IMG/VR virus record: IMGVR_UViG_3300037468_000493
Span: 15,754 to 79,753 of that record
DNA: 64,000 bases
Source: a virus
Strand: one strand, 5' to 3'
The notes under the pieces are model-generated. The model did no database searches. It had not been told where the DNA came from and worked only from the letters and a program-made list of their open reading frames with translations. Below are positions 13,941 to 60,500 of the stretch, piece after piece. Position 1 is the first letter of the stretch; each line of letters opens with the position of its first letter. The translations under genes were made by a program, and so were the position numbers.

Positions 13941-14073
13941 CCTGTACAGGGTGTGCAGGCCATGCAGGCTCTCGTTGAAATTATTTGGGTGTGTGTGCGG
14001 CGAAATTTTTTCGGAAACACACATCACTTTCACGCTAGGAAACAGGGGTGTTTGCCCTGCACGGCCTGCACAG
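13941..14073 (+). repeat. 133-bp dispersed origin-like element, copy 1
   Basis: CCTGTACAGGGTGTGCAGGCCATGCAGG...CCTGCACGGCCTGCACAG; four further copies. Confidence 0.95.
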
Positions 14074-14078
14074 TGCTA

Positions 14079-14201
14079 ATAAGTTAGCGCCCCTGGCAGA
14101 CTCGCCATCTACCAGGGGCGCTAACTTATCGCGGTAATCCCCGGCCTAACCGCCGGGGCAGCTGTCAAGGATTCCTTGACAGCTGCCCCAGCGGTTAGGC
14201 C
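14079..14201. repeat. Two long inverted repeats
   Basis: 18-bp perfect arms 14079-14096/14112-14129; ~28-bp arms with one mismatch 14143-14201 centred on GTCAAGGATTCCTTGAC. Confidence 0.9.
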
Positions 14202-14213
14202 AGCCTCTTACGG

Positions 14214-14426
14214 TCATGCCGTGGCTTCACTGATTAACTCTAATTGCTCTATGGGCCAGTGAGCTGTATGCGTGGCAGGCGGCGGCGGTTGCAGCCTAGC
14301 CGATTGGCATTCGTAAGGGGTGCCCTCATCGTGAGTGATGATCTCAATCACGGTGTAGGTGTCATAGGTGCAATCTTCGGCGGCTACCAATTCCCCGCCG
14401 TACTTCATCGTGGCTGCGTGTTTCAT
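14214..14426 (-). CDS. Small hypothetical protein
   Basis: 70 aa; CTGACA-N17-TATTAT promoter-like sequence near 14495-14522. Confidence 0.5.
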   Translation of the reverse strand: MKHAATMKYGGELVAAEDCTYDTYTVIEIITHDEGTPYECQSARLQPPPPATHTAHWPIEQLELISEATA

Positions 14427-14713
14427 AATTAGGTGTGCCTACTTGGTTAGGGTACTGCCCATGGGCGCGTCAACGCCGCGACGGGCTACCACCATAATAC
14501 TCCCATGAGTCGCCGTTGTCAGGTCATTGCAGATAGAATATCGCCATCACATATCACTGACCCCACCGCCACTTCATACCGCAGGGCCTATCGTTGATGC
14601 TACAGAACTCTATCGGCTGTAGCTTTGCCCCCTGCCACGCCTGCCAGCCCATCACCGACGCGATCGCCACCAATGCCGCTACTCCAACCCCAGCCGCTAC
14701 TTTGTAAAACATA

Positions 14714-15466
14714 ATGGATATCTCTAAAATTACTGCCCAGGCTACCCGCTACCGGGCCAGCATCGGGGCTAACTACCGGGCGGTGCGGTACAACGGCACC
14801 CAACTCAACGTTAACCCAACGATTGATCATATGGGGCTAGACCTGGCCTTCCTCGCCACCGATGCAGTCCGCAACTCGATTGAGCGCTGGAAGTGCTACT
14901 TATCCAAAGAAATCTTGGCCGAGTCCAAGATCCCCGCTACTGCCTTGGCTGATTACGACTTTGGAGCCTGGGAGATTTTTGAGGATGGAGCCTGGCTCAA
15001 AGTCTTTATCCAGGATGTACCCAAACAACAGACCGGGCGCTGGGAAGTCACCTTTGCCCGTGGACTGGTCGAGGTGACAATGACCGTGACCTACCGGGTG
15101 GGCTCTGGCAGCTTCACCACAGACGCTGCCACGGGCAACCCCATTGAGGCCAGCACCGCCGCTACCTATTACGCCGTGGTATCCCAGGGCAGGGGCAGGG
15201 CCGCCGCCGTGGAGGTCGCAGGGTTACCAGCGGGGCGGCTATTCCTCGAAGGCCACTTCAGCACCGCTACCGGGGAACCAGCACTCATGCCCGCTAACCT
15301 ACAAATTCAAAAGCCATGGCCTGCTGTGCTAGCGGTCGGCAATGGCCTAGAGGTCGAGGGTACATTCTCCGTAGCCCTGTCCGGGGCCAGCCCCTGGAAT
15401 GCTGCTGAAGTAGGGCGCGGTGGTAAGCTGCAAGGAAACTTTATTAGCGCTGGGAGTGGCCGGTAA
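14714..15466 (+). CDS. Putative head-closure / head-tail joining protein
   Basis: 250 aa, upstream of the neck and tail genes. Confidence 0.5.
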   Translation: MDISKITAQATRYRASIGANYRAVRYNGTQLNVNPTIDHMGLDLAFLATDAVRNSIERWKCYLSKEILAESKIPATALADYDFGAWEIFEDGAWLKVFIQDVPKQQTGRWEVTFARGLVEVTMTVTYRVGSGSFTTDAATGNPIEASTAATYYAVVSQGRGRAAAVEVAGLPAGRLFLEGHFSTATGEPALMPANLQIQKPWPAVLAVGNGLEVEGTFSVALSGASPWNAAEVGRGGKLQGNFISAGSGR

Positions 15467-15777: not shown

Positions 15778-15807
15778 AAAAACCCCTCGGGGGAGGGGCG
15801 AGGGGTT
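15778..15807 (-). terminator. Intrinsic terminator
   Basis: AACCCCTCG...CGAGGGGTT hairpin with A-tract on its left, between convergent genes. Confidence 0.6.
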
Positions 15808-15840
15808 GAGACTGGGTTAGTCACCTCCCCATGGTTTGGT

Positions 15841-15978
15841 TTAGCACAAAGCCTTGAGCATTTCTTCTTTGAGCAGGTGCTTACCCTTGCCGTGGGCATT
15901 TCGCCAGGCGATACCCCTTATGGAGCATTCGCGGCGCAACTCTGCATTGCTCATCTTGGCCCAGTCAGGTGTGGGCAC
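15841..15978 (-). CDS. 45-aa helix-extension-helix (Rho-N/SAP-like) miniprotein, paralog of the C-terminus of 45448-45867
   Basis: ELRRECSIRGIAWRNAHGKGKHLLKEEMLKALC is nearly identical to the end of the 45.4-kb ORF; not in the ORF track. Confidence 0.6.
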   Translation of the reverse strand: MPTPDWAKMSNAELRRECSIRGIAWRNAHGKGKHLLKEEMLKALC

Positions 15979-16007: not shown

Positions 16008-16220
16008 TTAGGCAAGTGCACAGGATATCGCCATGGCGCTTACTTGATTGCTTTCAATAGCCGCCTTAACCCATGCGTAGGCATTCCGCAAATCTACTTC
16101 TTCGTTAACCAAATATCGTTGCGTGTCGGGGAATACGCCAGCATCAATGACGGTTTTTAGCTGCTTAGCGTTGTAGATGCCGTGATACTTTAGTGCCTGC
16201 TTAGCTTCTGATCTAGTCAT
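16008..16220 (-). CDS. Small cassette ORF (MTRSEAKQ..., 70 aa)
   Basis: Start reassigned to the ATG after the conserved leader CATACCACCGCAAAGAGGCACCACCG. Confidence 0.65.
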   Translation of the reverse strand: MTRSEAKQALKYHGIYNAKQLKTVIDAGVFPDTQRYLVNEEVDLRNAYAWVKAAIESNQVSAMAISCALA

Positions 16221-16280
16221 CGGTGGTGCCTCTTTGCGGTGGTATGTAACCACTATAACCCCGCTTGACTGTTGCGTCAA
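16218..16280 (-). promoter_or_regulatory. sigma70-type promoter plus conserved leader/RBS
   Basis: TTGACG-N17-TATAGT; leader identical to that at 45128-45156. Confidence 0.75.
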
Positions 16281-20303: not shown

Positions 20304-23300
20304 CTTAGGAGAATTAGTCCTCAGGCTTAGGGTTGATGACAGTCAGTACGCCCGAGACCTACTCAGGGCCAAGGCCCAGGCTGCTGCGCTCAAAGATATC
20401 CGGGTTGGCCTCCGGGTTGACAATAGCCAGTACACCCGAGACCTACTCAAAGCCAGGGCAGAAGCTCAGTCGCTCAAAGATATCCGGGTTGGTCTACAGC
20501 TTGACAGCAGCCAATACACCCGCGACTTACTCAGCGCCAGGGCACAGGCTGAAGCGCTCAAAGATATCCGGGTTAATCTCCGGGCTGATGGACTGGGGGG
20601 CGTTGATGCTGGCCTACAGAGAGTCGGAACCAGTACCCGTGATGTGAGGACATCGTTCTCTGTCTTGCAGGGGGCGATCCAGGGCGCAGCCCAGGCCATC
20701 ACCCAAAGCCTGATTCAGATCGGCGGGTCATTGCTAAAGCTCCCTCTCAACATTGTGGGTGGGTCGCTTAACAGCTTTGCAGAATTAGAGACAGAGTTGG
20801 TAAACTTAGGCGCAAAGACTACCCTGGGCAGAGAGGGCATACAACCCATCGCTGATGAAATCCAGAGGCTTGGCCAAGAATCAACAAAAACATCAGTAGA
20901 AGTCGCCCAGGCCGCAAATACTTTATCTCAGCTAGGCGTAGCGCCTGATGAGATTCAAAAGCAACTTGCAGGGGTGGTGAAACTATCTGAAGCTACAGGG
21001 GCAGGCTTGGTGGAGGCCGCTAAGCTTAGTACAGGTGCCGCTAAGACTTTTGGATTTTCAGCTGACGAAATCGCCGATCGATTGGCATCTTTAGCTATTG
21101 ACACCGCTGCGGATGTTGGAGACGTTCAACAGCTTTTACAACAAACTAGCGGTATTTTTAATCAGTTAGGAGATTCAGCAGATCCCGACGAACTATTAGC
21201 TTTTTTTGCTACACTCATCGATGCAAACATAAACCCAGAAGTGGCGGCTACAGGTTTAAGGTCAGTAATTGAAACATTAGTAGACCCCAAAAAAGCTGAC
21301 GAATTAAAAGAGCTAGGAGTTGACGCATTCGACGCAACAGGAAATTTCCTAGGGTTTGACACTGTACTCAGGCAATTGGCAGCAACGCAAAAAACCTTGA
21401 ACCCTCAAGATTTCACAGGTAAACTTCTTAGCGCTTTTGGGGCTGGAGGTATTTCAGCAATTACAGGAGGACTAGGCGGTTTAGATAAAAACTTTAATAA
21501 AACACTTGATGGACTAGAAAACTCTACTGGCAAAACTGATGTAATTAAAGAAGAGCTACAAAAAGGACTTCCAGCCGCTATAGAACAATTTGGCGGATCC
21601 CTGAACACGCTTGATGTTGCATTTGGCGCATCAATCGCCCCCATTCAAGAAGGGATATTACGACTAGGGACAACGTTGCTTAATACCTTAAGCAAGTCCG
21701 ACATTTTTGATCAGCTTACTACCGCGTCAAATGGTTTCTTTAAGGCACTGCAAAGCAATGAAGGGTTTGTTGCAGAGCTAGGCAAAACCCTCGTTTCCAC
21801 ATTTGGATCAGTCCTTAACGCCATTGCATCCGTCGTCACTCGAATCACAAACGAATTTATAGCTAACCCTGAAGAGATCCTGGCCCGTGTTCAAGGTTTT
21901 GTGACTCAAGCTGGAGTCGTGATCACCAACGCCATTCTTGGGGCCGGTGCTGCCTTTCAGTTTATCGTCCAAAACTTTGATGAAATCGTCGCCGGGGTGC
22001 AGGCCCTGGGGGTTGTCATTGCCGCCGCGCTGGCAGGCAATGTCATTGCCGGGGTAGTCTCGTTTGGGGCGACCCTAGTCAGCATTGCCTCCACCGTCCT
22101 CCCGGTTGTCATCGGCGCATTTACCGCGCTATCAGGCACCGTCTCCGGGCTACTGCTGGCATTCCAGGCGGGGGGCATCGCCGGGGTAGTGTCTAGCCTT
22201 GGCGCTACCTTCTCCCTGTTCGCGGCATCGTTGGCCCCGCTACTGCCCATCATTGCCGCCGTGGCTGGGGCGATCGCATTAATCGTCGTCGCGTTCAAGG
22301 CATTGCGGTCGGAGCGGGGCCAGGAAGTTCTAAGTGCGATCGGGGCCACGGCCAAAGAATTGTTTGACTCATTCCGCAATAGTGAACCCGTGAAGGCGTT
22401 CTTAAATCTGCTGGATTCAATCAGGGATCTGGGAGTTGCGCTCATCCCAGTTATCCAAAATGTAGTCGGGGAAATGATTCGATTTGGCGGCGTTGGGATT
22501 GAAAATATAAAGTCAGCTTTTGCCTCAACGGGAATTAGCGTCAATGATATTTATAAAACATTTTTACTCTTAAATCCTGTTTTTGCCGGTGCAATTGCCC
22601 TTTCCAAAACATTGCTTTCAATCGTTACTGACATTCTCAATCAGACCGCCACTGTCATTGACAACCTCACCGCTGCTATCAGTGGGCCGAAGACACTTGA
22701 AGTATCAGGAGTCGATGGGCTAGGCGACTCGCTGAGGGAGGGGGCCAATGCTCTAGGGACAGCAGGGAAAAACATAGCGGATGTCGCCAAGCCCCCCGCA
22801 GCAACCCCCGCAGCAACCCCCGCAGAACCTCCCGCTGGCCCCACCCGTGACCTTGCTGCTGAGCAAAAAGCTGCCGCCGATGCCCTTGCCGCTGCTGAGC
22901 AAAAAGCTGCCGCCGATGCCCTTGCCGCTGCTGAGAAAAAGGCCGAGGACGACAAGAACGCCCGACAGACCGCCTTTGACAATGCCCGCATTGCCCGTGA
23001 CATCGCCGCCGAAGATGCCAAACTAGCCCGTCAACAAGCCTTCGAGGATACCAAACGCGCCAATGCCCTTGCCTTAGAATCTGAGATTGAAAGCCGCAAG
23101 ATAGCGACCGAGCAGGCGATCGAGGCCATCAAAGAAGAGGGCCGCCGCCGGGAGGAAGAATTTAACGCCCGCCAAAATGCTGACAAGCTAGCCTTCGAGG
23201 ATGACCTGGCTAAGCGTAAAAACGCCGCTGAGCGCCAGTTTGCCCTAGACGAAGCTGAAACACTGGACGAGCGGAACAAGCTGGTTGAGGGCTTCGCCGC

Positions 23301-24024: not shown

Positions 24025-24500
24025 TGTCCAATAAATTTACGCTGATTCTTGCAGGGCAGACCAGCATCGTCCTTACCCATTCCGCCGGTCAGTTATTTGC
24101 CCCCGCGCAGCTAGGATTCACCAGCGTAGGCGACACCAATCTTCGAGGCATCTCCCTAGTCGGCGCTACCCCGGTGCAACCGCTCGACCTGGTCTTCGAC
24201 GCGGCTTTGACCAATGCACAATTCTGTACCTTCCAGCAGTTTGCCTACCAGCAAGAGGTGGGGGGCCAGAAGGGCGATATCGTGCTTAGGAATGAATGGT
24301 ACAGAATCAACGCTAACTGGGCTGCCGTCAATAATCGATCAACCGTGGGCAGCGCTGTCACTACCGCAGGCATCTCCCAGAGCTACGTTCAGTATCCTGT
24401 GCTTCTACTGTTGCCAGAGGATTGGTTTGAGCCCCTGGGCCAGAACAGCGGGGGGCAGTGGTGGTCGGTGAAGTTTACGGCGAAAGAGTTGACGGCTTAG
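24024..24500 (+). CDS. Putative distal tail protein
   Basis: 158 aa directly after TMP; ends VKFTAKE. Confidence 0.55.
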   Translation: MSNKFTLILAGQTSIVLTHSAGQLFAPAQLGFTSVGDTNLRGISLVGATPVQPLDLVFDAALTNAQFCTFQQFAYQQEVGGQKGDIVLRNEWYRINANWAAVNNRSTVGSAVTTAGISQSYVQYPVLLLLPEDWFEPLGQNSGGQWWSVKFTAKELTA

Positions 24501-24794
24501 CGCCGCGACACCAATAGCCGCGCTCTCATATCCACGTCAACCCACCAGGTTCTACACTGTCGGCAGAAGTCAGCGTCTAGGCCTGGGATCTGCATTGGGT
24601 GGTTGCATCGGCCTGTATTGGGGCGTTCAACAGATGGCGTCAGTTCAAACATAGCCGGGACGCATAAATGTAGGCGTTGACCAAGGTGCCAACGTGTTGC
24701 TTTTGATCCGGGGTAAGCCCGGAGTCAACCAGGGCGGCAAGGGCTTCACTGGCTAGGGCGGTGCAGTCTGCGATCGTGGCCGGGGGTTGGGTGG

Positions 24795-26873
24795 TCATGG
24801 GGCATCTAGAACACGGTTCAATAGCGGAAAGTCATATTCTTCTAAACTTTGCTGATATGCAGTAAAGTACGTTTGAACCTTAATCCTTTCTTTCTCATCA
24901 TGATTAAGCTTTTGGTTAAGGTTTGATTCAATTAGCCATGTACTTAATTTTCCAGCCCGGTTGACCTGGAAATTATGATCAACTTGCCCTAACGGCTTGC
25001 CATCTTTGCCATCTAATAAAGCTGGATCGCCTGTCCTCGGGTCTTCCCCTACTATCTTTGCGTTTGTTACAGGACAGTGACCGTGGTAGCGAAAATGAAC
25101 AAAGCGAACATGAAGATCTCTGACCTTTTCACTCACCCTGTCACGTTTGTTCCGAAGTTCTTCTCCTAGCTGTTGACGGATCTCCTCAACAGAGCCGCCA
25201 ATGCTAGCCATCCCATTTTCTAGATTGTTTATCTTTGCCAGCCATTCAACAGATTCTTGATATCCTGTAGGCTCCCAATGCTCTAGATTATTGATTGTTG
25301 ACTGAAGTTTGAGTATGGTAGCTTCAATGCGATCGAATCCCTTTTTATTCTCATCCTGGCCTCGAACAATCAGGGCTGTAACCTTCTCAAACTCTGCCTT
25401 TAACTCTGGAATGAATTGAGATGGCAGCGCTGCATTTATCCCGTTGTTACCAACAGCAGGATCTTCTAGGCGAGATGCTTCCGAGTTTAGCTGCCGTTCT
25501 AGCCCCCGGTCTTTGATGCCCTTGACTTGCGAAGCCAGCTTATTATTGTATCGAGCATCGCCCAGGTAATCCAAAGCCAGCCAAGCTGGAACCAGGTGCT
25601 TCTCTGATGGTTTCAGGATAAACCCATGATTGGCCAAGGCGTGGCGCAGTGTGCCTTCGTCTCGGTTTCGCCCACCTGCTTTGATCCCGATCGCAAGCCG
25701 GTGATCGGTAGCACCTTCTACCCGGTAAAACTCCACGCCGCTGTACTCAGCCAATGCCGATAGCTCCAGGGGAAGTCCGGTAGTCGATTTCAAATCGACT
25801 ACCGGAATCAAAATCTGCTTGTCGGCTAATGCAAAGCTATCCACAAAGTCTTTTGGCCTTGACTCGCCTGTCTTAAACAGGCTCAGCGTGGAAGCACGAT
25901 AAAGCGGGATACCCATAAACTCTACATCGGGTGCTGGCAGCTTACCATCAGCTACAGCCGCCGCAAACTCTGCAAGGGTAGGGGCGATGTTGGGGTCTAT
26001 GCCGTGGCTCGCCTCTCTGTGCTCTGGCTGAAGTGCAGAGCGTGGCGTGTTGACGATAGCCCTGGAGTCTTGGTCTATGCCGTGGCTCGGTTCGCTGCTC
26101 GCTGGCTGAATAGCTTCGGTAACCTGGGCTTTGATTGGACTTGATCTACGGGCTTTGGTCTGTGGAGGGGCATTGACAATAGGCGACACAGCGATCGCAT
26201 CATCCCAATCAAAGACTCTGCCCCTGTATTTTGAAAACGCCTCAATCAACTGGCGGCTGTAGTAGGTGTTGGCTCCGCAACGCTTGTACCACTTGCCACC
26301 CCCAGAGGGATCTAAGTATTTTATGCGAAATTCTCTTTTACAAGCCAGGATTGAGGCGTTACAAGAGTCGCAGGGATCTTCCCCGCCATATCCGAACCCA
26401 GCCGCAACCGCGTCAACCCGCAACCACTCCGTCGGCTCAACATTAGCAGGGAAAAACGCTGATATATCATCTTGAGCCTGAGCACTGGTGAGAGGCTTCT
26501 GCTCAACTGGGGATGGGGTGCTCACCCGTGGCTCAGGCTCTATCCATCCATCCCGTTCGGCCTGCCACCTGGTAACCTGATCAGCGTAATCCTTCTTCTC
26601 TTTTGGAATAAACGGCGTCAATTCTGGCAACGGCGTCAATTCTGGCTCGGCCATGAGCGCAAACAATGGCAACGGCTCAGCAGTGCTGCGGTTGTGGCCT
26701 GGCGGAAAGTCACGAGCAGCCCACTTGCAATTACTGCACTCATACCTAAACCCGTTCTTCTTTTTGTCACGTCGCGTCGTGTTGTGCCCGCAGTTTTCGC
26801 ACCTTCTAACGTGCAGACCAGTAACCGACACTACCCATTTTTCAGTTAATCCGGACGCACTCAATCCACTCAT
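24795..26873 (-). CDS. Multidomain protein: N-terminal Zn ribbon, coiled coil, C-terminal HNH-like segment (antirepressor-like)
   Basis: CENC...CSNC; HCPVT...QVDHNF...LNQKL. Confidence 0.55.
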   Translation of the reverse strand: MSGLSASGLTEKWVVSVTGLHVRRCENCGHNTTRRDKKKNGFRYECSNCKWAARDFPPGHNRSTAEPLPLFALMAEPELTPLPELTPFIPKEKKDYADQVTRWQAERDGWIEPEPRVSTPSPVEQKPLTSAQAQDDISAFFPANVEPTEWLRVDAVAAGFGYGGEDPCDSCNASILACKREFRIKYLDPSGGGKWYKRCGANTYYSRQLIEAFSKYRGRVFDWDDAIAVSPIVNAPPQTKARRSSPIKAQVTEAIQPASSEPSHGIDQDSRAIVNTPRSALQPEHREASHGIDPNIAPTLAEFAAAVADGKLPAPDVEFMGIPLYRASTLSLFKTGESRPKDFVDSFALADKQILIPVVDLKSTTGLPLELSALAEYSGVEFYRVEGATDHRLAIGIKAGGRNRDEGTLRHALANHGFILKPSEKHLVPAWLALDYLGDARYNNKLASQVKGIKDRGLERQLNSEASRLEDPAVGNNGINAALPSQFIPELKAEFEKVTALIVRGQDENKKGFDRIEATILKLQSTINNLEHWEPTGYQESVEWLAKINNLENGMASIGGSVEEIRQQLGEELRNKRDRVSEKVRDLHVRFVHFRYHGHCPVTNAKIVGEDPRTGDPALLDGKDGKPLGQVDHNFQVNRAGKLSTWLIESNLNQKLNHDEKERIKVQTYFTAYQQSLEEYDFPLLNRVLDAP

Positions 26874-27154
26874 GTCGCAACCGTGAGATTACCACGATTC
26901 TACCATAACGGCCACACGGCCCCCCCCACCCCCCCCGGCCTGCCACCACTCGACGCAACAAACCCCCGCCATTGCTGACGGGGGTTTTGTTTGGGTGAGC
27001 CAACTTGCCAAACTCAACCCATGAGCTTCTCGAACTCTCTCCATAATACCAAAACAAAACCCCTTCGCTAGGCCAGGGGTTTCTCATCGGGGCAAGCATA
27101 CCTCTCGAGGGTGAAACCCTTGATTTACTTGGGGCTGGGGGTAATCAGCAAGCA

Positions 27155-27430: not shown

Positions 27431-27563
27431 CCTGTACAGGGTGTGCAGGCCATGCAGGCTCTCGTTCAAATTATTTGGCTGTGTGTGCGGCGGAATTTTT
27501 TAGGAAACACACACAGCTTCTGCGCTAAGAAACGGGGGTGTTTGGGGTGCACGGCCTGCACAG
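27431..27563 (+). repeat. 133-bp element, copy 2
   Basis: Ungapped match to copy 1. Confidence 0.95.
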
Positions 27564-27595
27564 CCCTAGCGCGATTGCTCAAAACCCTTCTGTAC

Positions 27596-27728
27596 CCTGT
27601 ACAGGGTGTGCAGGCCATGCAGGCTCTCGTTCAAATTATTTGGCTGTGTGTGCGGCGAAATTTTTTCGGAAACACACATCACTTTCACGCTAAGAAACGG
27701 GGGTGTTTGGGGTGCATGGCCTGTACAG
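27596..27728 (+). repeat. 133-bp element, copy 3 (tandem with copy 2, 165-bp period)
   Basis: Ungapped match; about 25 bp of trailing sequence also duplicated. Confidence 0.95.
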
Positions 27729-27978
27729 CCTTAGCGCGATCGCCTAAAACCCCTGTTCTCTCGTTGCGGCCATCATTGCCTGGCTCATTACTACAGGAGG
27801 CACAGGGCACTATTACCTAATCTTTTCTTATATACTTTTACTGTGTATAGACAGCACAAAACAGACCACGTTGCCGGGGTCTTTTCAAAATTGTAGCACC
27901 TTGCACAGCCCTGAACGATGCCGCCAACCCCGACCCGGCGCGGCCTAGGGTGGTGCACTACACAGTAGAGAGAGCACC

Positions 27979-35444: not shown

Positions 35445-35504
35445 GGGCCTCAAGGAAAAACGGGAAGCCCCTCGGGTGAGGGGCGGGGGTTAGGTGAGGG
35501 TGGT

Positions 35505-41002: not shown

Positions 41003-41029
41003 CTCCACTCAGAAATCTTTTGGCCATCG

Positions 41030-42297: not shown

Positions 42298-42945
42298 CTA
42301 TGCCACTCCCTTTTCTAGGCTAGCTGAACCGATCCGAACATATCTTGACTCAACTAAATCATACACCCATTCATTTGGATAGTTGAAAACAGCAAACTTA
42401 CCATGGTGTTCAGCCGCTAAATCGTCATATCGTCTAGCGGCAGATTCTGCACTGCGAAACCCAGACTCAGCAATAGATGTACTGTATTGAATTTGAACCC
42501 TAAATGTATCAACAGCCTGGCTAACACCCTTTAGGCTGGAAACCCTAGGATCCTTGCGTGCGTGCGGCCTAATGTTGTACGCATTCTCAGCCTTTGTAGC
42601 CAGTCTTAGATTAGACCTTCGGTTGTTCAACTTGTTCCAATCAATATGATCACAATGCTCACCCTTGACCACCAATCGACCAAGCATTCTTTCAAGAATA
42701 AGAGGTGCCAGGTAAATGGTAACGTTAGGGAAAACACTATGACTTCGGCTTACGTTCCTAGTGAAATAAGAATTTGACTGACAATACCAAGAATAATCAG
42801 CAAGATCTCTGTCGCACAAATCAACGAAGCAAGATATGCCGTTTGCTGCGATGATTTCTATGCAATCACCATGCTCCACCCACTTAGGCTCAACCCTTTT
42901 GAAGCGAGACTTAAGCAAATCAGTCTGATAAGCAATAATATCCAT
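42298..42945 (-). CDS. HNH-AP2 homing endonuclease
   Basis: CDHIDWNKLNNRRSNLRLATKAENAYN, then KGV...AARRYD...HGKFAVFN; AT-rich; TATAAT upstream; ORF also open from 43062. Confidence 0.85.
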   Translation of the reverse strand: MDIIAYQTDLLKSRFKRVEPKWVEHGDCIEIIAANGISCFVDLCDRDLADYSWYCQSNSYFTRNVSRSHSVFPNVTIYLAPLILERMLGRLVVKGEHCDHIDWNKLNNRRSNLRLATKAENAYNIRPHARKDPRVSSLKGVSQAVDTFRVQIQYSTSIAESGFRSAESAARRYDDLAAEHHGKFAVFNYPNEWVYDLVESRYVRIGSASLEKGVA

Positions 42946-43096
42946 GATCAAAATTGAAACCGCGACTACACCTCTAATTATAGCATTTGCAATTGCACTT
43001 GCACTTGTGACATTTGGCAAGAACCCGCCATAGTACAGGGTGAGGCTTTGCTTGTCTGGCATGACTGCTCGCGGTAAATACTGGGCAGAATAATCC

Positions 43097-43719: not shown

Positions 43720-44412
43720 CTAGGTCGGTACTGCCCCGCCGCCCTGCCCCTGGTCGGGGTGGTTGCCTTTGTCAGACGCACGTTTAGGATATGGTTTCCG
43801 CAATGGCTCTATCTTAGCCCGCATCTCTGGTGTGAGTGGGTAGAGGTATTTGTGTTTGCCGTCCACCACCCTGCAAGGCAAACCCTTTACAGATTTAGCC
43901 CCACCGCTGCCAAACGGGCTATAACTGGCCTCTCTGCTGTGCACCCACTTCCCATCCTTAAAATATTCTCTCGTCTTATCACCTTTGCCTACATATATCC
44001 AGTTTGAAGCCTGGTAAACCCCTCCGTGGTGCCCTTGTGCTGGATCTGCATAGCTGATCACCAATTCAACGCCAGCACTTTGTCTTTGTAAGAATTTAAG
44101 CGCCAGTGCGATACATTTTGAGACACTGACCTTATGCTCTCTCATGGCAATGCGCACCAGTTCACAGAACCCAGTCGCGCTACACCCATAAGCTTTGCCA
44201 GCCAAGTGATTAGCACCTCTGGCGAAGATCACAGCGCCTATAAAATTACCATCCTCCCAAATGCCAATTTTTACCAATTTGCCTAGGGGCATCTTTTTGG
44301 AATAGTGCCAGTTCATAACAGCGTATTTTGATGCTTTTGCACTGCACCAATCGAGCCGCAATTCTGGCTTAGTACTGCTTGATAAATTGGTGGCCACAGT
44401 TGGGGCAGACAC
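43720..44412 (-). CDS. Mom-like DNA modification protein (GNAT fold)
   Basis: WHYS, IGAVIF, ELVRIA, ISYADPAQGHHGGVYQASNWIYVG motifs. Confidence 0.8.
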   Translation of the reverse strand: MSAPTVATNLSSSTKPELRLDWCSAKASKYAVMNWHYSKKMPLGKLVKIGIWEDGNFIGAVIFARGANHLAGKAYGCSATGFCELVRIAMREHKVSVSKCIALALKFLQRQSAGVELVISYADPAQGHHGGVYQASNWIYVGKGDKTREYFKDGKWVHSREASYSPFGSGGAKSVKGLPCRVVDGKHKYLYPLTPEMRAKIEPLRKPYPKRASDKGNHPDQGQGGGAVPT

Positions 44413-44920: not shown

Positions 44921-45092
44921 GGGCTACCTAAGAATAAAGGCCCTGAGTACGCAGGGCCAGAGTGATCTTGTCCGTCGCTCTGGGGTCTGACTCCAGAAAC
45001 AACGACTCCATTCTATCAGCCAGAATCTCGCAGTACTACTGTAGGGATTCCAGCCCCCCGATACACCAGTACAAAGTAGTACAGAACAGTAG

Positions 45093-45156
45093 TTGACAGT
45101 CACAAAAGGTGTGGGTTACAGTGGATGCATACCACCGCAAAGAGGCACCACCGATG
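45093..45156 (+). promoter_or_regulatory. sigma70-type cassette promoter and leader
   Basis: TTGACAGTCACAAAAGGTGTGGGTTACAGT...CATACCACCGCAAAGAGGCACCACCG-ATG. Confidence 0.75.
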
Positions 45157-45351
45157 ACTACCGCAATGCGCCAAACCATTTCTAGCAACAACAGCGCCAC
45201 CATAACCGCCGCTGCATCGACCGAAAAATTCAGCATTCGCCTAGAAGACAAGCTAGTAGGCGAGACTCACACCGTCACTATTTTTGACGCAGCAGAAGCC
45301 CGACGCCTAGCCGCCGCTCTATTGCTATGGGCCGACAACGCTGACGCCTAG
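45154..45351 (+). CDS. Small cassette ORF (MTTAMRQ...)
   Basis: Starts at the conserved leader; EARRLAAALL motif. Confidence 0.65.
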   Translation: MTTAMRQTISSNNSATITAAASTEKFSIRLEDKLVGETHTVTIFDAAEARRLAAALLLWADNADA

Positions 45352-45396: not shown

Positions 45397-45447
45397 CTGA
45401 GCCCCACCCACTACACGGGGCCATTCACCACATTGAGGATTCACACC

Positions 45448-45867
45448 ATGACCGCATTCGAGATTTTCATGTACGCCGCTGCAATCCTGACCGTGCTCTG
45501 GCTCCGTGCCGAGCCCCAGGCCCCCACCCCGATCGCCGTCGCGCCAGCGGTGCAACCAGTTGATGACCTTCCCGCCCTCCCGGTGCTGCTAGCCCAGTCC
45601 GAGAAGCTGACCGCGCCGCCGGTGGTGACTTCGCGCACGGTAGCCGCCGATATGGTTGAACCGGTAGCGATCGCCCGAATTGAGGATGCCTGGATTGCTG
45701 AGCTAGAAGTAGAGCCACCCTCGCCCACGGCGGCAGCAGATTATTTGGAAACCTGGAGCGCCCAGGAGCTACGCCGCGAATGCAGCCGCCGGGGTATTGC
45801 CTGGCGTAATGCCCACGGCAAGGGTAAGCACCTGCTCAAAGAAGAAATGCTCAAGGCTTTGTGCTAG
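45448..45867 (+). CDS. Membrane-anchored protein with C-terminal HeH (Rho-N/SAP-like) motif
   Basis: N-terminal hydrophobic helix, Pro/Ala linker, WSAQELRRECSRRGI...KEEMLKAL. Confidence 0.65.
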   Translation: MTAFEIFMYAAAILTVLWLRAEPQAPTPIAVAPAVQPVDDLPALPVLLAQSEKLTAPPVVTSRTVAADMVEPVAIARIEDAWIAELEVEPPSPTAAADYLETWSAQELRRECSRRGIAWRNAHGKGKHLLKEEMLKALC

Positions 45868-45959
45868 GCATGAACTGGGGAGGTGACTAACCCAGGCACA
45901 ACTACACCCCGCACCTCCCCCGATGGGCACCCACCACCACCCCTACCAGGACGCCACCC

Positions 45960-46169
45960 ATGACTACCTGCCCCCACTGCCACTACAGCCCCTGCCACCG
46001 CCACGACAAGACCAGGGCAGGCACTCAGCGGTGGATGTGCCCCCAATGCCTCAAGGCCCACAGCGAGAGCGGCCTAAAGGGGCGGCCTAGCATTGGCGAT
46101 CGCCCCATGACCGACGCTGAGCGAATGCGGCGGAGCAGGAAGAAAAAGAGAAGCACGGGACTACCGTAG
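45960..46169 (+). CDS. Small zinc-ribbon protein with basic helix
   Basis: CPHC...GTQRWMCPQC; GRPSIGDRPMTDAERMRRSR. Confidence 0.7.
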   Translation: MTTCPHCHYSPCHRHDKTRAGTQRWMCPQCLKAHSESGLKGRPSIGDRPMTDAERMRRSRKKKRSTGLP

Positions 46170-47186
46170 CGACTCCAGCACCCGCAGCGACTCCAGCACC
46201 CGCTGCATCATCAGGCATGGGATACCGTTGCCGATGATCTTGGTGGTTGCCCCCTGATACCAATCGGGCATGGTTTGGATGCGGCCAAAGGCTTGGGTAT
46301 TGAATGCCACTACCCTGCCGCCCACCTGCGCCCGTATGCTGCGCTTAGCCTGAGTCGCTGAAACAGTAAACATGGGTTCGGCATCGGCTCGGATGGTCAA
46401 ACCCCGCTTGCCCTTTTCGTCCGGAGCGCCGTTGTACTGATCATCAATGACGAAGGCTTTAATCAAATTGCCGCCCTGATTAGTCGTCAGGGTGAACGAT
46501 GGTCTGTCCCATGGCACAACCGGCATGGTTCGTTGGTCGGTGGGGTGAACCATGAAGGACTTGTTTAGCTGTGCGGGCAGCCGCTCCAACTGCCATAGTG
46601 CAAACTGGCTATCCGGCAACCCAGGGATCAAATCCTCAATGGCCTCATACCACCCCCGCCACTTCACCGGCTGAGGTAATGGCCCAACGAACCCGCCTTT
46701 GACCGCCCGCAGGATTAACCGGCGGCGGGTCTGGGGTACTCCAAAATCTGCTGAATTGAGCACATCCACATTGACCCAATACCCAGCCCCCCAGAGATGA
46801 TCCACAATGCGCTGGAACCCTGGGGCCTTGCGGTAGCCCTCCACGTTCTCCAGGGTGACGGTGCTGGGCTTTAGCACCCGTAGCGCCTCAATACAGGCAC
46901 TGGCTAACCCATCGTTGTCATTGCCCACCTTGCCGCGGGTCTTGGCCACGCTGAAATCTTGGCAGGGCGGCGACATGTGCAAATGGTCGGGGCTCTCCAC
47001 ACTGGCCCAGTCAAACCCGATCACCGAGGCTGTATGTACCGTGTCCCGGTGGGGGAGGTTGGCATTTGCAACGGAAGCAATATCCGGCTCTAGCTCAACA
47101 CCCCAAAGCAACTCATACCCCGACTGCATGGCCCCGATGTCGGCCAGCCCCCCGCCGGTGAATAACGAAGCGAATGTTTTTGGCAT
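46161..47186 (-). CDS. DNA cytosine-C5 methyltransferase
   Basis: SLFTGGG, SPPCQDFS, ENV, QTRRR, IGNG motifs. Confidence 0.92.
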   Translation of the reverse strand: MPKTFASLFTGGGLADIGAMQSGYELLWGVELEPDIASVANANLPHRDTVHTASVIGFDWASVESPDHLHMSPPCQDFSVAKTRGKVGNDNDGLASACIEALRVLKPSTVTLENVEGYRKAPGFQRIVDHLWGAGYWVNVDVLNSADFGVPQTRRRLILRAVKGGFVGPLPQPVKWRGWYEAIEDLIPGLPDSQFALWQLERLPAQLNKSFMVHPTDQRTMPVVPWDRPSFTLTTNQGGNLIKAFVIDDQYNGAPDEKGKRGLTIRADAEPMFTVSATQAKRSIRAQVGGRVVAFNTQAFGRIQTMPDWYQGATTKIIGNGIPCLMMQRVLESLRVLESLR

Positions 47187-56187: not shown

Positions 56188-57090
56188 ATGGTTGCTACCC
56201 CCATAGTTTCACGGGAGACTCATGATAATTTGTCTCCCGACCACTTCCCCTACTTCCTTGATCGAGGATTTAACTTCGACCACATCCAGCTAATCCAGTC
56301 CTGGGGTGTGCGCTCAATCAACCTGCAAGAATCCCTACGACTAGGGATCAAAAAGTACGACCCTGGCACCAAAAGACATCTCAGTGATGGCGGCATCTGG
56401 TTCCCCTTTACCAGCACCTATGGTCAAGTCAGGTTCAACACGGCTCTAAAACTGAAATCAGGGGAAGAATACCGATACCTCAGCCCTCGACAACCGGCAA
56501 AGGCCTGGATACCGCCAGGGGGCCATGGGTTTGGATCTGTGGATGCTATCACCGAGGGCTGGGCCGATGCCGCCGCGCCAACGGTAAGGGGCGTGCGTAC
56601 CGCTGCGATCGTCGGAACCTACAACGTGATCTACAGCGTAGACAAAGACTGTGGAGTGCCCCTTATCTACGACTCAGATGGATGGATGAAACCGCAGGTG
56701 ATGAGGGCGCTGATTCTGGGCGCTATCTGGACGAATGGCAGGATTAACATTTTTCCACAGATGGAGGCATACCCCAGCGGTGGGGGCAGTGAGTTTTTTA
56801 AGTCGGGCCGCACCATCGCCGACTATCAGCAACTGATCAATGAAGCCCTGACCCCTCACCAGTTGATCAAAAAATGGATCGGGTTCTGGGGCCAGATGGA
56901 TAGGGCCACTCAGACCAAGGCGATCGGGGTGGCGGCTGAGGCGGCTTACTGGATTCGCAACCCTGACCAGGTACTGAGATACCTGGAGCAATGCCGAGAG
57001 GAAAAGATCCCGGTTGAGGTTGGCACCAGTATTTATCACGAAGAAACCCACGAATATTTCTTATCCCAGGCCATTGAGGAACCAACATGA
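56188..57090 (+). CDS. Toprim-type primase (DUF3854-like)
   Basis: YRYLSP, ITEGW, YDSD motifs; coupled to helicase. Confidence 0.7.
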   Translation: MVATPIVSRETHDNLSPDHFPYFLDRGFNFDHIQLIQSWGVRSINLQESLRLGIKKYDPGTKRHLSDGGIWFPFTSTYGQVRFNTALKLKSGEEYRYLSPRQPAKAWIPPGGHGFGSVDAITEGWADAAAPTVRGVRTAAIVGTYNVIYSVDKDCGVPLIYDSDGWMKPQVMRALILGAIWTNGRINIFPQMEAYPSGGGSEFFKSGRTIADYQQLINEALTPHQLIKKWIGFWGQMDRATQTKAIGVAAEAAYWIRNPDQVLRYLEQCREEKIPVEVGTSIYHEETHEYFLSQAIEEPT

Positions 57091-59261
57091 GCCGCCTAGC
57101 CCAGATCGCCGATACTGACCTTGATGCCCTGCTATACGACATCCGCACAGCCACTAAAATTTACGACAAACGAGAATTTAATAAAAAAGTAGTGAGCAAG
57201 GCTGAGCAGAAAATGCTCAAACTTGTTCAGGCTGTAGCCGTCAAAGAGCGCCAGGACATTGAAGACGAAGACCGCTATACCCTGCCCAGCGGCATCACTA
57301 TTGAGCAACACCTATTTAACCTGACATTTTGCGAAACGGAACGGCCCATCAAGGTGATTGACCACGCCTTTAGGCAGTACGATCCAGAGTATGGGTACTG
57401 GGCCAGCATTCCTGATGAGCAGCTAGAACAGCGAGTACTCCAAAACGCTGAGCTATCCCATTACCCACCGACCAAGACCGGGCCAGGGCGATCGCTGGCG
57501 ACGGCGGCCAATGTGGAAAAGGCGATGAAATTTGCAGGCAAAAAGTTATTCGCCGCGACCCACAAGACCAACAGCAAACACCTGATCGCATTTAGGAATT
57601 TTACTGTATGCACCAAGACCGGCGACACTAGAGATCATAATCCTGATTACCACATCACCACATGCCTGCCCTATGACTATGCCCCTGGGGCTAGCTGCCC
57701 CCCGGCGATGCTGGGCTACATTGCCAGCAGCTTTGGGGAATCCCAGGTTGAATACGTCCGGGCCGCGCTAGGGCTGATCCTCGACCTGACGGCCCCCGAT
57801 CGGTTCATTCACCTAACGGGCTCGAGTGGTTCTGGTAAGGGGGTTTTTACTCGGCTGATTATGAAATTCTTTGGGAGTGAGTCGGTAGGTTCACCCAATA
57901 ACTTTAAGATTTTTGCTAACCCAGACCAGGTGCACCAGTACCTCAGCGGGAAAAGACTACTGGCCATCGATGACATCGTTGGGTTTATTGGAGAAGAGAT
58001 TGGCCGGTTCTATACCGCCGTCGAGCGCACGGCCATGAATGCCCGGTGTTTGTTTAAACCCAAGGGCTATACCCAGCAGTTTGATTGCCGGTATACCGTG
58101 GCCAGCGTGGGCCAGCTATCGGCCAAGTACAGCAACTCTAAGGGCTGGGAGCGTCGGGTTTTTCCATTGCCTACGGTTAGGGCATCAAGACAGGAGGAAG
58201 ACGAACGGCTGGAACTTGAGCTAGAGAACTGCATTGCCGACATCGTAAGTTGGGCATTGGATCAGGACAAAGCCCTGAGAAACGACATCCTACGCCACCC
58301 CGCCAAGTACAACCCTGCCGCCGCCGAGTATTTCAGAGATGCAGCCTTCAGCAGTAGCAGCGCCTGGGCCTTTATTGACGAATGCTTAGAGCCTAGAATC
58401 CCCAGCGTCACCGATAGCTTTGACGATCAGGGCATCAACGAGACTGAACTATACCTGGCTTACAAGGCCTATACCGCTGCCGTGGGCAAGCCGCCTATGA
58501 GTCGTGATGGGTTTGTCCATGAGCTGCGCCAGGTGCTGCCATTGAACTGGGTTGATCGCCGGTCGGGTGGCAAGGTCAAGCGGCGGTTCGTTTATATCCG
58601 CCTGCGCCCTGCCTTTGAGTTTGGCGAGTTTGGGGCGACCTGCAACATGGAAGCCCGAGGCTATGACGGGGTGCTCCAGTTTAGGGAATGGTCGGTTATC
58701 CACGGAGCCATGCACCCCTACGATCCAGGTGACCTGGAGGCACTAAATTCACCATGGGTTGCAGGGCTAACAAACCCTGAACTGATGGCAGGAATGACAG
58801 CCCCTGAGCCACCCCCAGAACAACCCTGTGCAGGCCATGCAGGGCAAACACACCCGATTTCTAGCGCAGAAGTCGTGTGTGTTTCCGAAAAAATTTCGCC
58901 GCACACACAGCCAAATAATTTCAACGAGAGTGTGCATGGCCTGCACACCCTGTACAGCGCAGACCCAGAGCCCGTTAACCCGTCGCAAGGTTGCTTTAAC
59001 GAGCAGGGCCAGGTGGTGACACCATGGCTCACCCCCGGTAAACCGACATGGTGGACTGACTTTGAGCAGCGATTGATCGAGGCGACGACATGGGAGCAAT
59101 TGCAGCAGGCTAAGGCCAAGACATCACCCTCCCGCCGCAGCCAGATTATGAACACCTGGGACAGTGATGGGCGCTACGAATGGCTTAAGGCCAATGCCGA
59201 ACGGTTAGAGGCCGAAGCCCAGTGCCAGCAGCAGCAGGGCCTCAACGTGGGGGGCAAATAA
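57087..59261 (+). CDS. D5-like / P4-family SF3 helicase
   Basis: IAFRN...HNPDYHIT (D5-N), GSSGSGKG Walker A, GKRLLAIDD, GWERR. Confidence 0.88.
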   Translation: MSRLAQIADTDLDALLYDIRTATKIYDKREFNKKVVSKAEQKMLKLVQAVAVKERQDIEDEDRYTLPSGITIEQHLFNLTFCETERPIKVIDHAFRQYDPEYGYWASIPDEQLEQRVLQNAELSHYPPTKTGPGRSLATAANVEKAMKFAGKKLFAATHKTNSKHLIAFRNFTVCTKTGDTRDHNPDYHITTCLPYDYAPGASCPPAMLGYIASSFGESQVEYVRAALGLILDLTAPDRFIHLTGSSGSGKGVFTRLIMKFFGSESVGSPNNFKIFANPDQVHQYLSGKRLLAIDDIVGFIGEEIGRFYTAVERTAMNARCLFKPKGYTQQFDCRYTVASVGQLSAKYSNSKGWERRVFPLPTVRASRQEEDERLELELENCIADIVSWALDQDKALRNDILRHPAKYNPAAAEYFRDAAFSSSSAWAFIDECLEPRIPSVTDSFDDQGINETELYLAYKAYTAAVGKPPMSRDGFVHELRQVLPLNWVDRRSGGKVKRRFVYIRLRPAFEFGEFGATCNMEARGYDGVLQFREWSVIHGAMHPYDPGDLEALNSPWVAGLTNPELMAGMTAPEPPPEQPCAGHAGQTHPISSAEVVCVSEKISPHTQPNNFNESVHGLHTLYSADPEPVNPSQGCFNEQGQVVTPWLTPGKPTWWTDFEQRLIEATTWEQLQQAKAKTSPSRRSQIMNTWDSDGRYEWLKANAERLEAEAQCQQQQGLNVGGK
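58826..58958 (-). repeat. 133-bp element, copy 4 (inside helicase ORF; candidate replication origin)
   Basis: Reverse complement of copy 1; translated in frame as PCAGHAGQT...VHGLHTLYS. Confidence 0.95.
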
Positions 59262-59764
59262 TGTTCTTCCCAAAATCTCATGGGCTCCCCGTGATGGGGG
59301 ACAAGGTACGCCTTGACCACAACCCCGAACCCTACACCGTGGGCATGGTGACGCCCGATCGCACCTGGTATCACCTGCGAGAGCTAGACGAGCCGGTACG
59401 GGTAGAGTGCCTTGCCTGGTATCCACGGGTGGGCGATCGGGTAGAGGTGCTGTTCTGCCCCTACTTCAAATGGCTACAGGGCCGCTTTGACCATCACTGG
59501 TCGAGGTGGTGGGCGGAACCGGGGGAGCGACGGGCAATCGAGCAAACCCTAGACCGGATCAAGGCCGCGATGAAGAACGGGGTTCGCTACCGGGTGGGGG
59601 AGCTGATGAAGATTGAGGGCGACTTGGTAGAGGTTCAGTTCGGCAATAGTACCGAAGTGTTGCCGATGGAATGTGTAGCAGTAGCAAGGATCTTAATAGA
59701 TGCCACAGATAAAGGCGACACCGGGGACGACAAAGCGGATCGGACTGGTCGAGAAGCCGCCTAA
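59261..59764 (+). CDS. Hypothetical protein
   Basis: TAATG overlap; two P(x)xGD(K/R)V segments. Confidence 0.55.
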   Translation: MFFPKSHGLPVMGDKVRLDHNPEPYTVGMVTPDRTWYHLRELDEPVRVECLAWYPRVGDRVEVLFCPYFKWLQGRFDHHWSRWWAEPGERRAIEQTLDRIKAAMKNGVRYRVGELMKIEGDLVEVQFGNSTEVLPMECVAVARILIDATDKGDTGDDKADRTGREAA

Positions 59765-60305
59765 CATAAAGCTCAAGCCCATCCCCGAAAATGAACTACG
59801 GGAAGGTGCTGAGTGGATGGCGCGGCTGTCTAAAGACTACGGCTTCAAGCCTGGGTCTATCAAGTCGAAGAGCACCCAGAGCTACACCAGGGGCCTCACC
59901 ACTGCCTGCATACAAGCAATGAACCGCTACCACGATAGGGAGACATGTTTCCCCGCCAGCGAGACCTACAACGCCGCCACGGGGCGGAGCGGGGATATCC
60001 TGGGCATCGTTGACGCGATTGTGATGGAGGTGGCCCCAGTACCCCGGAACCGATGGGTGCAGGCGTGTGGTCGGGACTGGCAATCGCACGTAACAACCAT
60101 GGCCGATAAAGTCAACCGAGTGCGCCAGGTGCTGTGCAACCCTACCCACTCGCTTGAGCTCTGGGGATGGCAGCAATATCCCGGATTCACTAAAGGGGGC
60201 GGCAGGGCCAAAACCATGTTCTGGTATCCCAGGGTGCAGATCATTACCCTTGATTTCATCCTGGGCCAAGAGCCGCCGCGATTTGTGCGGTTCTGGGAAG
60301 CGTAA
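59700..60305 (+). CDS. PD-(D/E)XK-type nuclease, possible Holliday junction resolvase
   Basis: DILGIVDAIV...WVQAC...LELWGW pattern. Confidence 0.55.
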   Translation: MPQIKATPGTTKRIGLVEKPPNIKLKPIPENELREGAEWMARLSKDYGFKPGSIKSKSTQSYTRGLTTACIQAMNRYHDRETCFPASETYNAATGRSGDILGIVDAIVMEVAPVPRNRWVQACGRDWQSHVTTMADKVNRVRQVLCNPTHSLELWGWQQYPGFTKGGGRAKTMFWYPRVQIITLDFILGQEPPRFVRFWEA

Positions 60306-60367
60306 CCCTTACCCCGCAACGCATTCAGCCCCGTCACCATGGCGGGGTTTTTCTTTGGCCGATCGCC

Positions 60368-60500
60368 CTGTGCAGGCCATGCAGGGCAAACACCCCCGCT
60401 TTCTAGCGCAGAATCCGTGTGTGTTTCCGAAAAAATTTCGCCGCACACACACCCAAATAATTTGAACGAGAGCCTGCATGGCCTGCACACCCTGTACAGG
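60368..60500 (-). repeat. 133-bp element, copy 5 (intergenic)
   Basis: Between a terminator (~60327-60355) and a TTGACG-N17-TACAAT promoter (60526-60554). Confidence 0.95.

Follow-up and report, generated by a model that had tools for sequence, protein, structure and literature searches.

In the current study, we characterized a 133-bp element that occurs five times in the genome of a HIP1-rich cyanophage of 79.7 kb; coordinates below refer to the window, the stretch of 64,000 nucleotides that was analyzed. The element is probably an iteron-type replication-origin cassette cognate to the phage's own D5-like SF3 primase-helicase, and the copy within the helicase gene (copy 4) is our candidate for the primary origin. 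Several features by which origins are recognized were found, namely convergent iterons flanking a centre, an AT-rich centre, and linkage to an SF3 initiator gene whose iterons vary from lineage to lineage. Judged from sequence comparison, copy 4 is ancestral and common to distant relatives, and the other four copies are lineage-specific duplicates. The cassette offers a concrete and testable candidate origin for an entire family of cyanobacterial phages and prophages of ~75-80 kb.

The five copies align without gaps over 133 columns with a mean column identity of 94% and pairwise identities of 88-100%. An independent repeat search recovered all of them, and matches to the cassette were found at exactly five places in the whole 79,753-bp virus record. 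Each copy carries, in element orientation, three forward RTRCAGG units (columns 4-10, 13-19, and 22-28) and two inverted CCTGCAY units (columns 116-122 and 125-131), with 9 bp from one unit to the next in both arrays. Both AT-rich stretches, AAATTATTT and CGAAATTTTTTCG, are present in the alignment. In these respects the analysis bears out an earlier sequence-only reading of this DNA, which had proposed five ungapped 133-bp copies at these positions, three forward and up to two inverted iteron units per copy, and AT-rich cores. That reading had also placed the substitutions in one internal segment; they are indeed concentrated at columns 84-104, but columns 29-33 and 115-117 are further variable spots. 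The centre of the cassette holds a GTGTGTG/CACACAC inverted repeat, and its AT content in 20-bp windows is 65-70% vs. 46% for the genome, a moderate enrichment. Read in reverse complement, the right end matches columns 11-29 at 18 of 19 positions, so that the cassette can be described as a pair of terminal inverted repeats with an additional unit at its left side. Elsewhere the heptamer is about as frequent as expected by chance (43 instances vs. 42.4 ± 6.5 in shuffles), and all 12 heptamer pairs phased at 9 bp fall within the five copies.

Copy 1 (s1; 13941-14073, plus strand) is intergenic, between the divergent genes 11883-13856 (minus) and 14714-15466 (plus), and has syntenic counterparts in G001 and in the metagenome contig L275. 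Copy 2 (s2a; 27431-27563, plus) is also intergenic, upstream of a 692-aa gene (24795-26873, minus), and copy 3 (s2b; 27596-27728, plus) is its tandem duplicate with a 165-bp period (133 bp and a 32-bp spacer). This second site holds one copy only in G001 and in metagenome contigs, and copy 3 was seen only in the present genome. The tandem pair lies ~31 kb from copy 4 (s4; 58826-58958, minus), whose forward units are at 58949-58955, 58940-58946, and 58931-58937 and whose inverted units are at 58837-58843 and 58828-58834. Copy 5 (s5; 60368-60500, minus) is intergenic, 1.5 kb downstream of copy 4, with syntenic counterparts in G001 and L276/L279. It lies 18 bp after a terminator-like hairpin (60327-60349, plus) that ends the helicase operon, and a promoter-like site, TTGACG-17-TACAAT (60526-60554, plus), follows 25 bp after it. 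Terminator-like calls within the cassette are weak hairpins of 5-8 pairs. Cumulative GC skew reaches its maximum at ~10 kb and its minimum at ~48-50 kb with no extreme at any copy, and is thus uninformative.

The gene that houses copy 4 (57087-59261, plus) encodes a D5-like SF3 primase-helicase of 724 aa, the presumed initiator. A D5_N domain was matched in Pfam at residues 139-205, and weak Pfam matches below the curated cut-off were obtained for P-loop/DUF5906 (residues 243-340) and for a Pox_D5 winged-helix region (residues 429-493). In Foldseek comparisons (E ~1e-9), the fold is nearest to ASFV PrimPol, the SaPI5 primase-helicase/PriRep (7ola), and MPXV E5. As the sequence-only reading had stated, one copy does lie within this gene, where it is translated in frame as residues ~580-624. 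These residues fall within a linker (residues 563-633) that is predicted to be disordered (pLDDT below 50) and that separates the helicase body from a conserved helical C-terminal domain (residues 654-720), which is confidently predicted. The 9-bp period corresponds to three codons, and the repeats therefore stay in frame. None of the isolated phages in the GenBank phage collection has this helicase. A 300-aa ORF (56188-57090, plus) overlaps the start of the helicase gene and has no Pfam or PHROG matches. Its feature neighbours in a protein atlas are Toprim families (scores 0.90-0.93), and it is possible, as a lead only, that it encodes a Toprim-type primase partner of the helicase.

Related helicases with 48-51% identity were found in a Leptolyngbya PCC 7375 prophage (L255) and in two cyanobacterial MAGs (L283 and L282). 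All three genes carry, at the same linker position as copy 4, forward 9-bp iterons followed by a central GT/CA-rich palindrome and then inverted iterons. The prophage array consists of four GTGCAAGGG units, a 16-bp perfect palindrome, and two inverted units; that of L283 has GTGCAGGCC-type units and an 18-bp palindrome; and that of L282 has three ATGCAGGCC units, a 17-bp palindrome, and three inverted units. The central palindrome is degenerate in the present phage lineage (7 + 5 bp vs. 16-18 bp perfect in the relatives), which counts against the origin reading. Both iteron and palindrome sequences differ between lineages and are read in different frames (CAGHAG, VQAVQA, MQAMQA, LQGVQG). The shared layout and position in such divergent genes support copy 4 as the primary, helicase-tied element. 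As to whether these relatives carry dispersed copies of their own helicase-internal iterons, the linker array is single-copy in all three genomes and also across the whole 6-9.4 Mb genomes of the three hosts.

The comparisons show that, in this phage lineage, three intergenic sites received a copy of the entire cassette and that one more duplication, in tandem, took place in this genome; they also show that the copies exchange sequence and evolve in concert. Columns 30-32 are alike in all copies within a genome and different between genomes, and the most similar pairs are not orthologous: g1_s1 is closest to m_s2, and g1_s5 to m_s1, with four differences in each case. A point against the origin reading is that conservation of the dispersed copies (86-92%) is not higher than that of their flanks (85-96%). 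Strict conservation of length had been taken as a sign of selection on spacing, but this is a weak argument because sequence exchange homogenizes the copies, whose conservation does not exceed that of the flanks.

A 133-bp unit that is discrete and sharply bounded at every site, 18/19 terminal inverted repeats, three intergenic sites reached, and sequence variants shuffled among copies are also what one would expect of a MITE-like non-autonomous element that was spread by a transposase, had no role in replication, and happened to land one copy in frame in a tolerant helicase linker. MITEs are common in cyanobacteria, and the size of ~130 bp and the presence of several copies would suit such an element. 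We nevertheless consider this origin of the cassette improbable. Among the flanks of nine copies from two genomes, no direct repeat recurred consistently as a target-site duplication would; CCCTA/CCCTA flanks only g0 copy 2 and is missing at the orthologous G001 site. Searches of 185,579 species genomes with an invariant 22-mer of the cassette returned no copy, the seven matches sharing only 22-23 nt, and nothing resembling the cassette was found among GenBank phages and plasmids. Scans of viral and genome collections with 16-mers gave mostly chance matches, the contig G001 being the only true relative, and a search for moderately distant relatives that might have an empty s1 site returned G001 alone. 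Five copies are present here and four in G001, and all others, from metagenomes and IMG/VR, occupy the same four syntenic sites. Moreover, relatives that are 50% diverged have the helicase-internal element at this very position, and it is single-copy in their host genomes of 6-9.4 Mb. A search covering tyrosine recombinases/integrases and serine recombinases found none in this genome (G000). Target-site duplications and many host copies were the signs by which a MITE was to be recognized, and these results do not indicate one. The possibility that the cassettes mark mosaic junctions was dropped, as the breakpoints of G000/G001 homology do not coincide with cassette ends.

It is also conceivable, although unlikely, that the cassettes bind some other phage or host protein, such as a transcriptional regulator, a partition/condensation protein, an FtsK/TraB-like translocase, or a recombinase, and organize transcription units or segregation instead of replication initiation. 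Three dispersed copies lie at operon boundaries, with copy 5 exactly between the terminator-like hairpin and the promoter-like site and copy 1 in a divergent intergenic region. Centromere-like and translocase recognition sites, e.g., P1 parS and Streptomyces clt, are typically built of phased short convergent repeats as well. However, a protein of this kind gives no reason for a site inside the helicase linker across 50%-diverged relatives in which the iterons change lineage by lineage. Promoter prediction called no sigma-70-like promoter and no promoter-like hexamers inside the cassette. No ParB_N domain was found in G000, G001, or G002, which, together with the lack of a tyrosine integrase or serine recombinase in G000, leaves a role in plasmid partition without support.

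The inverted arms could in principle form a long outer stem around an inner hairpin, and the cassette would then be a structured RNA or a single-stranded DNA hairpin. Both strands do fold better than shuffles (z-scores between -3.5 and -6.8 in this phage and between -9 and -12 in the relatives), and from one lineage to the next the two arms of the central palindrome change in step. Even so, the element is very unlikely to act in this way. There was no Rfam match at gathering thresholds and no covariation among 13 distinct copies, the observed score being reached by 191 of 500 shuffles, and the existing variation breaks pairs at columns 22/122 and 62/72; a non-coding RNA, which covariation and expression were to reveal, is thus unsupported on both the Rfam and the covariation side. 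In addition, no transcript orientation is defined for copy 1. The two strands fold equally well, and pairing in the relatives' palindromes is strictly Watson-Crick, which fits a double-stranded DNA dyad or cruciform.

The nearest parallels include the origins of the Staphylococcus pathogenicity islands (SaPIs) with their self-loading SF3 Pri/Rep helicases, in which iterons flank an AT-rich region in opposite directions (PMC9371898). The phage shares with these islands a D5-like SF3 helicase of similar fold (7ola), opposed short iterons around an AT-rich centre, and an origin physically coupled to the rep gene (PMC9371898). In contrast, SaPIs have a single ori that follows immediately after the rep ORF and is built from penta-/hexanucleotide iterons, whereas the phage has five full copies of a cassette with a 9-bp period and a central palindrome, one of them embedded in the ORF as part of a translated linker. 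The origin of lambda and lambdoid phages combines iterons with an AT-rich tract in the middle of gene O and is translated, extra iterons adding residues (PMC7466680). Here too the iterons and AT-rich tract are located in the presumed initiator gene and belong to its translated sequence, but O is not a helicase, its 19-bp direct repeats stand on one side of the AT tract and are not convergent, and there is one origin per genome.

In the satellite phage P4, a second cis site (crr), distinct in position from ori, has the same iterons as ori and includes a tandem repeat of ~120 bp. The alpha initiator of P4 is a D5_N/SF3-type primase-helicase, and the tandem copies 2 and 3 resemble crr; however, ori and crr share octamer iterons only and not a whole conserved unit, whereas the phage has complete, ~90% identical cassettes at four loci and a tandem pair specific to one genome. 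The Bacillus phage SPP1 has two origins (oriL/oriR), of which one is contained in the initiator gene and the other is located at a great distance, in the late region. In N15 and PY54, repA by itself suffices as a minimal replicon, so that ori is placed within a gene of the primase-helicase type, a repA-internal ori reportedly described by Ziegelin et al. in 2005. The candidate origin inside the presumed initiator gene recalls these phages, and the distant further cassettes recall SPP1, although their initiator families or layouts are different and, to our knowledge, neither SPP1 nor N15/PY54 shows a set of five near-identical cassettes whose copies evolve in concert. Finally, in P1 (incA) and in iteron plasmids, iteron clusters outside the origin titrate the initiator or pair with initiator-bound origins (handcuffing) and so limit initiation. 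Titration or pairing is a possible role for the dispersed cassettes as well, but such clusters consist of iteron arrays only and belong to a plasmid lifestyle, whereas the phage repeats whole origin-like units in a genome with no detectable integrase or ParB.

If the cassette is an origin, the DNA-binding domains of the helicase would bind the convergent heptamer arrays on both sides, and two helicase rings could assemble around the centre, which is moderately AT-rich and contains the GT/CA palindrome. This centre would then melt, and a primase, possibly the product of the upstream 300-aa ORF, would prime synthesis. The extra copies would bind the same protein and would serve as further origins or, like P4 crr or P1 incA, as iteron sinks by which initiation is tuned. 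A wider proposal, which we put forward only tentatively, is that a whole origin cassette has turned into a duplicative, sequence-exchanging unit in a phage genome, providing interchangeable helicase-loading sites (a multi-origin siphovirus) or spare copies that throttle the initiator, and that a large family of D5-like primase-helicases writes its origins into C-terminal linkers as codon-phased 9-bp iterons. The five cassettes evolving in concert would be a natural system in which to ask whether extra helicase-loading sites speed or restrain phage replication and how an origin reaches new places.

It also counts against the origin reading that a gene-internal site is not universal in the family: in the homologues P0009-P0014 (locus L256) the linker is short and Pro-rich and has no iteron array, and no displaced array was found within 3 kb of the L256 helicase. 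Using C-terminal tripeptide-repeat arrays at the protein level as a proxy for the DNA of the homologues, we found that exactly reverse-complement-compatible pairs of arrays within proteins made up 14 of 29 among 50%-identity representatives of the helicase family (null 6.4%, p = 6e-10). On this protein-level proxy, iterons embedded in the helicase gene look family-wide, which suggests a rule for locating the origins of D5-like primase-helicases: to seek convergent tripeptide-repeat arrays in the C-terminal linker.

The five 133-bp copies of an iteron element claimed by the sequence-only reading align without gaps over 133 columns, with a mean column identity of 94%. They lie at 13941-14073, 27431-27563 and 27596-27728 (copies 1 to 3, plus strand) and at 58826-58958 and 60368-60500 (copies 4 and 5, minus strand), emerged independently as families of direct and inverted repeats, and are the complete set in the whole 79,753-bp IMG/VR record, of which the window is bases 15754-79753. 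In the orientation of the element, three forward RTRCAGG heptamers with a 9-bp period (columns 4-10, 13-19 and 22-28) are answered by a closing unit of two inverted heptamers (columns 116-122 and 125-131), and the right end of the cassette is an inverted copy of columns 11-29 with 18/19 positions matching. Between these arms are AAATTATTT and a GTGTGTG...CACACAC inverted repeat around CGAAATTTTTTCG; the centre is 65-70% AT in 20-bp windows vs. 46% for the genome. Substitutions do cluster in one internal segment, at columns 84-104, 3′ of the central inverted repeat. Outside the five copies the heptamer occurs at chance level (43 observed vs. 42.4 ± 6.5 in shuffles), whereas all 12 of the 12 heptamer pairs phased at 9 bp fall inside them.

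Copy 4 lies within an ORF (57087-59261, plus strand) for a 724-aa D5-like SF3 primase-helicase and is translated in frame as residues ~580-624. Its product has a D5_N match, weaker ones to DUF5906 (SF3 P-loop) and Pox_D5, and matches to PHROG families labelled DNA primase. Foldseek places its body nearest to ASFV PrimPol, the SaPI5 primase-helicase (7ola; TM 0.56-0.60 on target) and MPXV E5, at E values of ~1e-9. In an AlphaFold model based on 19 homologues, residues 563-633 have pLDDT below 50 and residues 654-720 form a confident helical C-terminal domain, indicating that the cassette is translated as part of the disordered linker of a SaPI-Rep-like helicase. In a language-model comparison, the neighbours of the ORF immediately preceding the helicase gene (56188-57090) were Toprim-like, and a Toprim-type protein is a lead only.

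Helicase homologues align well over residues 1-545 and the C-terminal domain, with a variable linker between. DNA was compared for three homologues 48-51% identical to the window helicase, and all three carry the same layout at the same place in the linker, in a different sequence. The Leptolyngbya sp. PCC 7375 prophage (loci L255/L281) has four forward copies of GTGCAAGGG, a perfect 16-bp palindrome and two inverted units; MAG P01_F01_bin.56 (L283, on a 74.5-kb contig) has three forward units of the GTGCAGGCC type, a perfect 18-bp palindrome and one clear plus two degenerate inverted units; and MAG P01_C01_bin.120 (L282) has three forward copies of ATGCAGGCC, a perfect 17-bp palindrome and three inverted units. 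The arms of the central palindrome have changed between lineages while keeping their complementarity. Because at least two codon phases are used across the repeats, the encoded peptide being CAGHAG in the window and VQAVQA, MQAMQA or LQGVQG elsewhere, selection acts on the DNA and not on the peptide. The sequence-only reading had proposed copy 4 as the origin, and this persistence of layout and linker position in diverged helicases supports it as a putative helicase-linked, origin-like site. Close homologues P0009-P0014 and the locus L256 have no linker array, and no substitute was found nearby.

The arrangement appears to extend across the helicase family. When 1.84 billion representative proteins were searched with a profile, 181 clusters matched at E ≤ 1e-30; these matches, combined with the earlier close homologues (182 proteins), were scanned for tandem tripeptide repeats, taken to stand in for DNA repeats of 9 bp. 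Of 29 pairs of arrays lying 15-110 residues apart within one protein, 14 could be encoded by exactly reverse-complementary 9-mers (e.g., TDRTDR/DQSDQS, LDRLDR/SDPSDP, MQAMQA/PAWPAW and MQAMQA/GLHGLH), compared to 6.4% of random array pairs (binomial p = 6e-10). Representatives with such compatible arrays include P0044, P0050, P0079, P0087 and P0121. Several incompatible pairs were near-misses, because the first iteron base is degenerate, and in the examples checked the arrays were C-terminal to the helicase match. Judging from these encoded repeats, convergent, codon-phased arrays of lineage-specific iterons in the 3′ linker look like a recurrent trait of the family.

The array is single-copy in the 74.8-kb PCC 7375 provirus record, in the whole 9.4-Mb PCC 7375 genome and in both whole MAGs (6.0 and 6.5 Mb), so the helicase-internal copy is the ancestral one, and dispersal took place solely in the lineage to which the window phage belongs. 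The close relative IMGVR_UViG_3300042561_001378 (G001; 78,143 bp) is colinear with the record holding the window (G000) at 80-95% nucleotide identity and has four copies at syntenic sites, without the tandem duplicate. A metagenome scan with the invariant 34-nt central pattern returned six contigs, all from the same phage lineage, their copies occupying those four sites, and one more IMG/VR fragment has a copy, also at site 2 (copies 2/3). With an invariant 22-mer as query, the element was not found among 185,579 prokaryotic species (one genome each), where seven matches shared merely 22-23 nt, and nothing similar occurs in GenBank phages or PLSDB plasmids. The two genomes also differ near the copies: G001 has ~2 kb of additional DNA exactly at the helicase stop codon (window 59255, G000 75007/75008 vs. 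G001 58404-60445), and the 692-aa gene beside copy 2 has a non-homologous replacement (window 24500-27150 vs. G001 24051-27132), with an island around copy 2 (~270 bp upstream, ~200 bp downstream) conserved amid variable DNA.

Such dispersal could be the work of a MITE, and the cassette does possess terminal inverted repeats. However, the copies lack consistent target-site duplications, host copies and variable insertion sites, the ancestral state is a single copy inside one gene, and a search of G000 limited to tyrosine and serine recombinases detected neither; together these weaken the MITE explanation. The dispersed copies (1, 2/3 and 5) are all intergenic, copy 5 having a terminator-like hairpin (60327-60349) on one side and a promoter-like site (60526-60554) on the other, and the tandem pair 2/3 is probably the product of recombination at CCTGT, a short microhomology. 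Substitutions specific to a genome are common to all of its copies: columns 30-32 are TCT in 5/5 copies of G000, and the eight G001 and metagenome copies have CTC there, save CTT at site 4 of G001. Moreover, the copies most alike are not orthologues: G001 site 1 pairs with metagenome site 2, and G001 site 5 with metagenome site 1, at four differences each, whereas orthologous pairs differ at 7-13 positions. The copies thus exchange sequence, i.e., they undergo concerted evolution. Their fixed length, previously read as selection on spacing, holds without a single indel in 13 distinct copies, which represent three genomes or metagenome lineages, but it is a weak sign of such selection. Orthologous copies are 86-92% identical vs. 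85-96% for their flanks, so no constraint beyond that on the surrounding DNA is visible for the dispersed copies.

A non-coding RNA received no support: Rfam gave no match, the covariation score within the family of copies was equalled in 191/500 shuffles, variable positions break pairs, and folding is equally good on both strands, as expected of a DNA dyad. The intergenic copies may instead bind another DNA-binding protein, although that would leave unexplained why the position within the helicase gene is conserved and why the iterons are lineage-specific, and ParB_N was not detected in G000. Under the origin reading, the extra copies could be further loading sites, or could resemble crr of P4 and incA of P1, which are iteron sinks. 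The helicase would bind the heptamers and might load as two rings around the AT-rich palindromic centre, a model that follows descriptions of SaPI origins (PMC9371898; bioRxiv 10.64898/2026.10.17.759575). The lambda ori occupies the middle of gene O, with added iterons lengthening the protein (PMC7466680), much as copy 4 lies within the helicase gene. Origins within initiator genes are a known kind; what differs here is that the putative origin is multiplied as whole cassettes.

Terminase, portal, major head and tape-measure genes identify a tailed phage, whose major head protein is 45% identical to counterparts in Vibrio siphoviruses of ~76 kb. The terminal repeat is 127 bp in both G000 and G001 and is presumably an overlap left by the assembly of a circular or permuted genome. 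Lifestyle modules differ among relatives, given their recombinase and integrase content: G001 has a large serine recombinase (65333-65767) and the PCC 7375 provirus a tyrosine integrase (74281-74745). Genes for a Mom-family protein, a C5 cytosine methylase, an N6/N4 methylase and an HNH endonuclease (window 43720-44412, 46161-47186, 62985-63938 and 42298-43062) suggest a phage heavily invested in DNA modification. Large structural genes contain in-frame tandem repeats (window 4212-5366, 10852-11355 and 20333-20588), namely six 171-bp units in a 1384-aa ORF, two ~261-bp units and, where the tape-measure gene begins, three 84-bp units. A second dispersed family of ~45-75 nt (window 16214-16261, 35761-35834 and 40946-41004, promoter on the minus strand, and 45065-45160, promoter on the plus strand) includes a near-consensus promoter (TTGACA, 18 nt, TATAGT), precedes a gene start at 3/4 sites (genes 34617-35453, 40104-40940 and 45433-45867) and looks like a reused promoter cassette. 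Two distant loci (15789-15942 and 45766-45918) carry an inverted duplicate of ~130-150 nt, 90% complementary, that resembles a small gene's 3′ end together with a G-rich hairpin. HIP1 (GCGATCGC) occurs 39 times vs. 1.2 expected, and the host is therefore a cyanobacterium. HIP1 or a HIP1-like GCGATCG stands within ~10-15 nt of where copies 2, 3 and 5 end on the right (27564-27595, 27729-27760 and 60340-60367), which may hint at the cassette's insertion site in a genome where the 39 HIP1 sites amount to about one per 2 kb.
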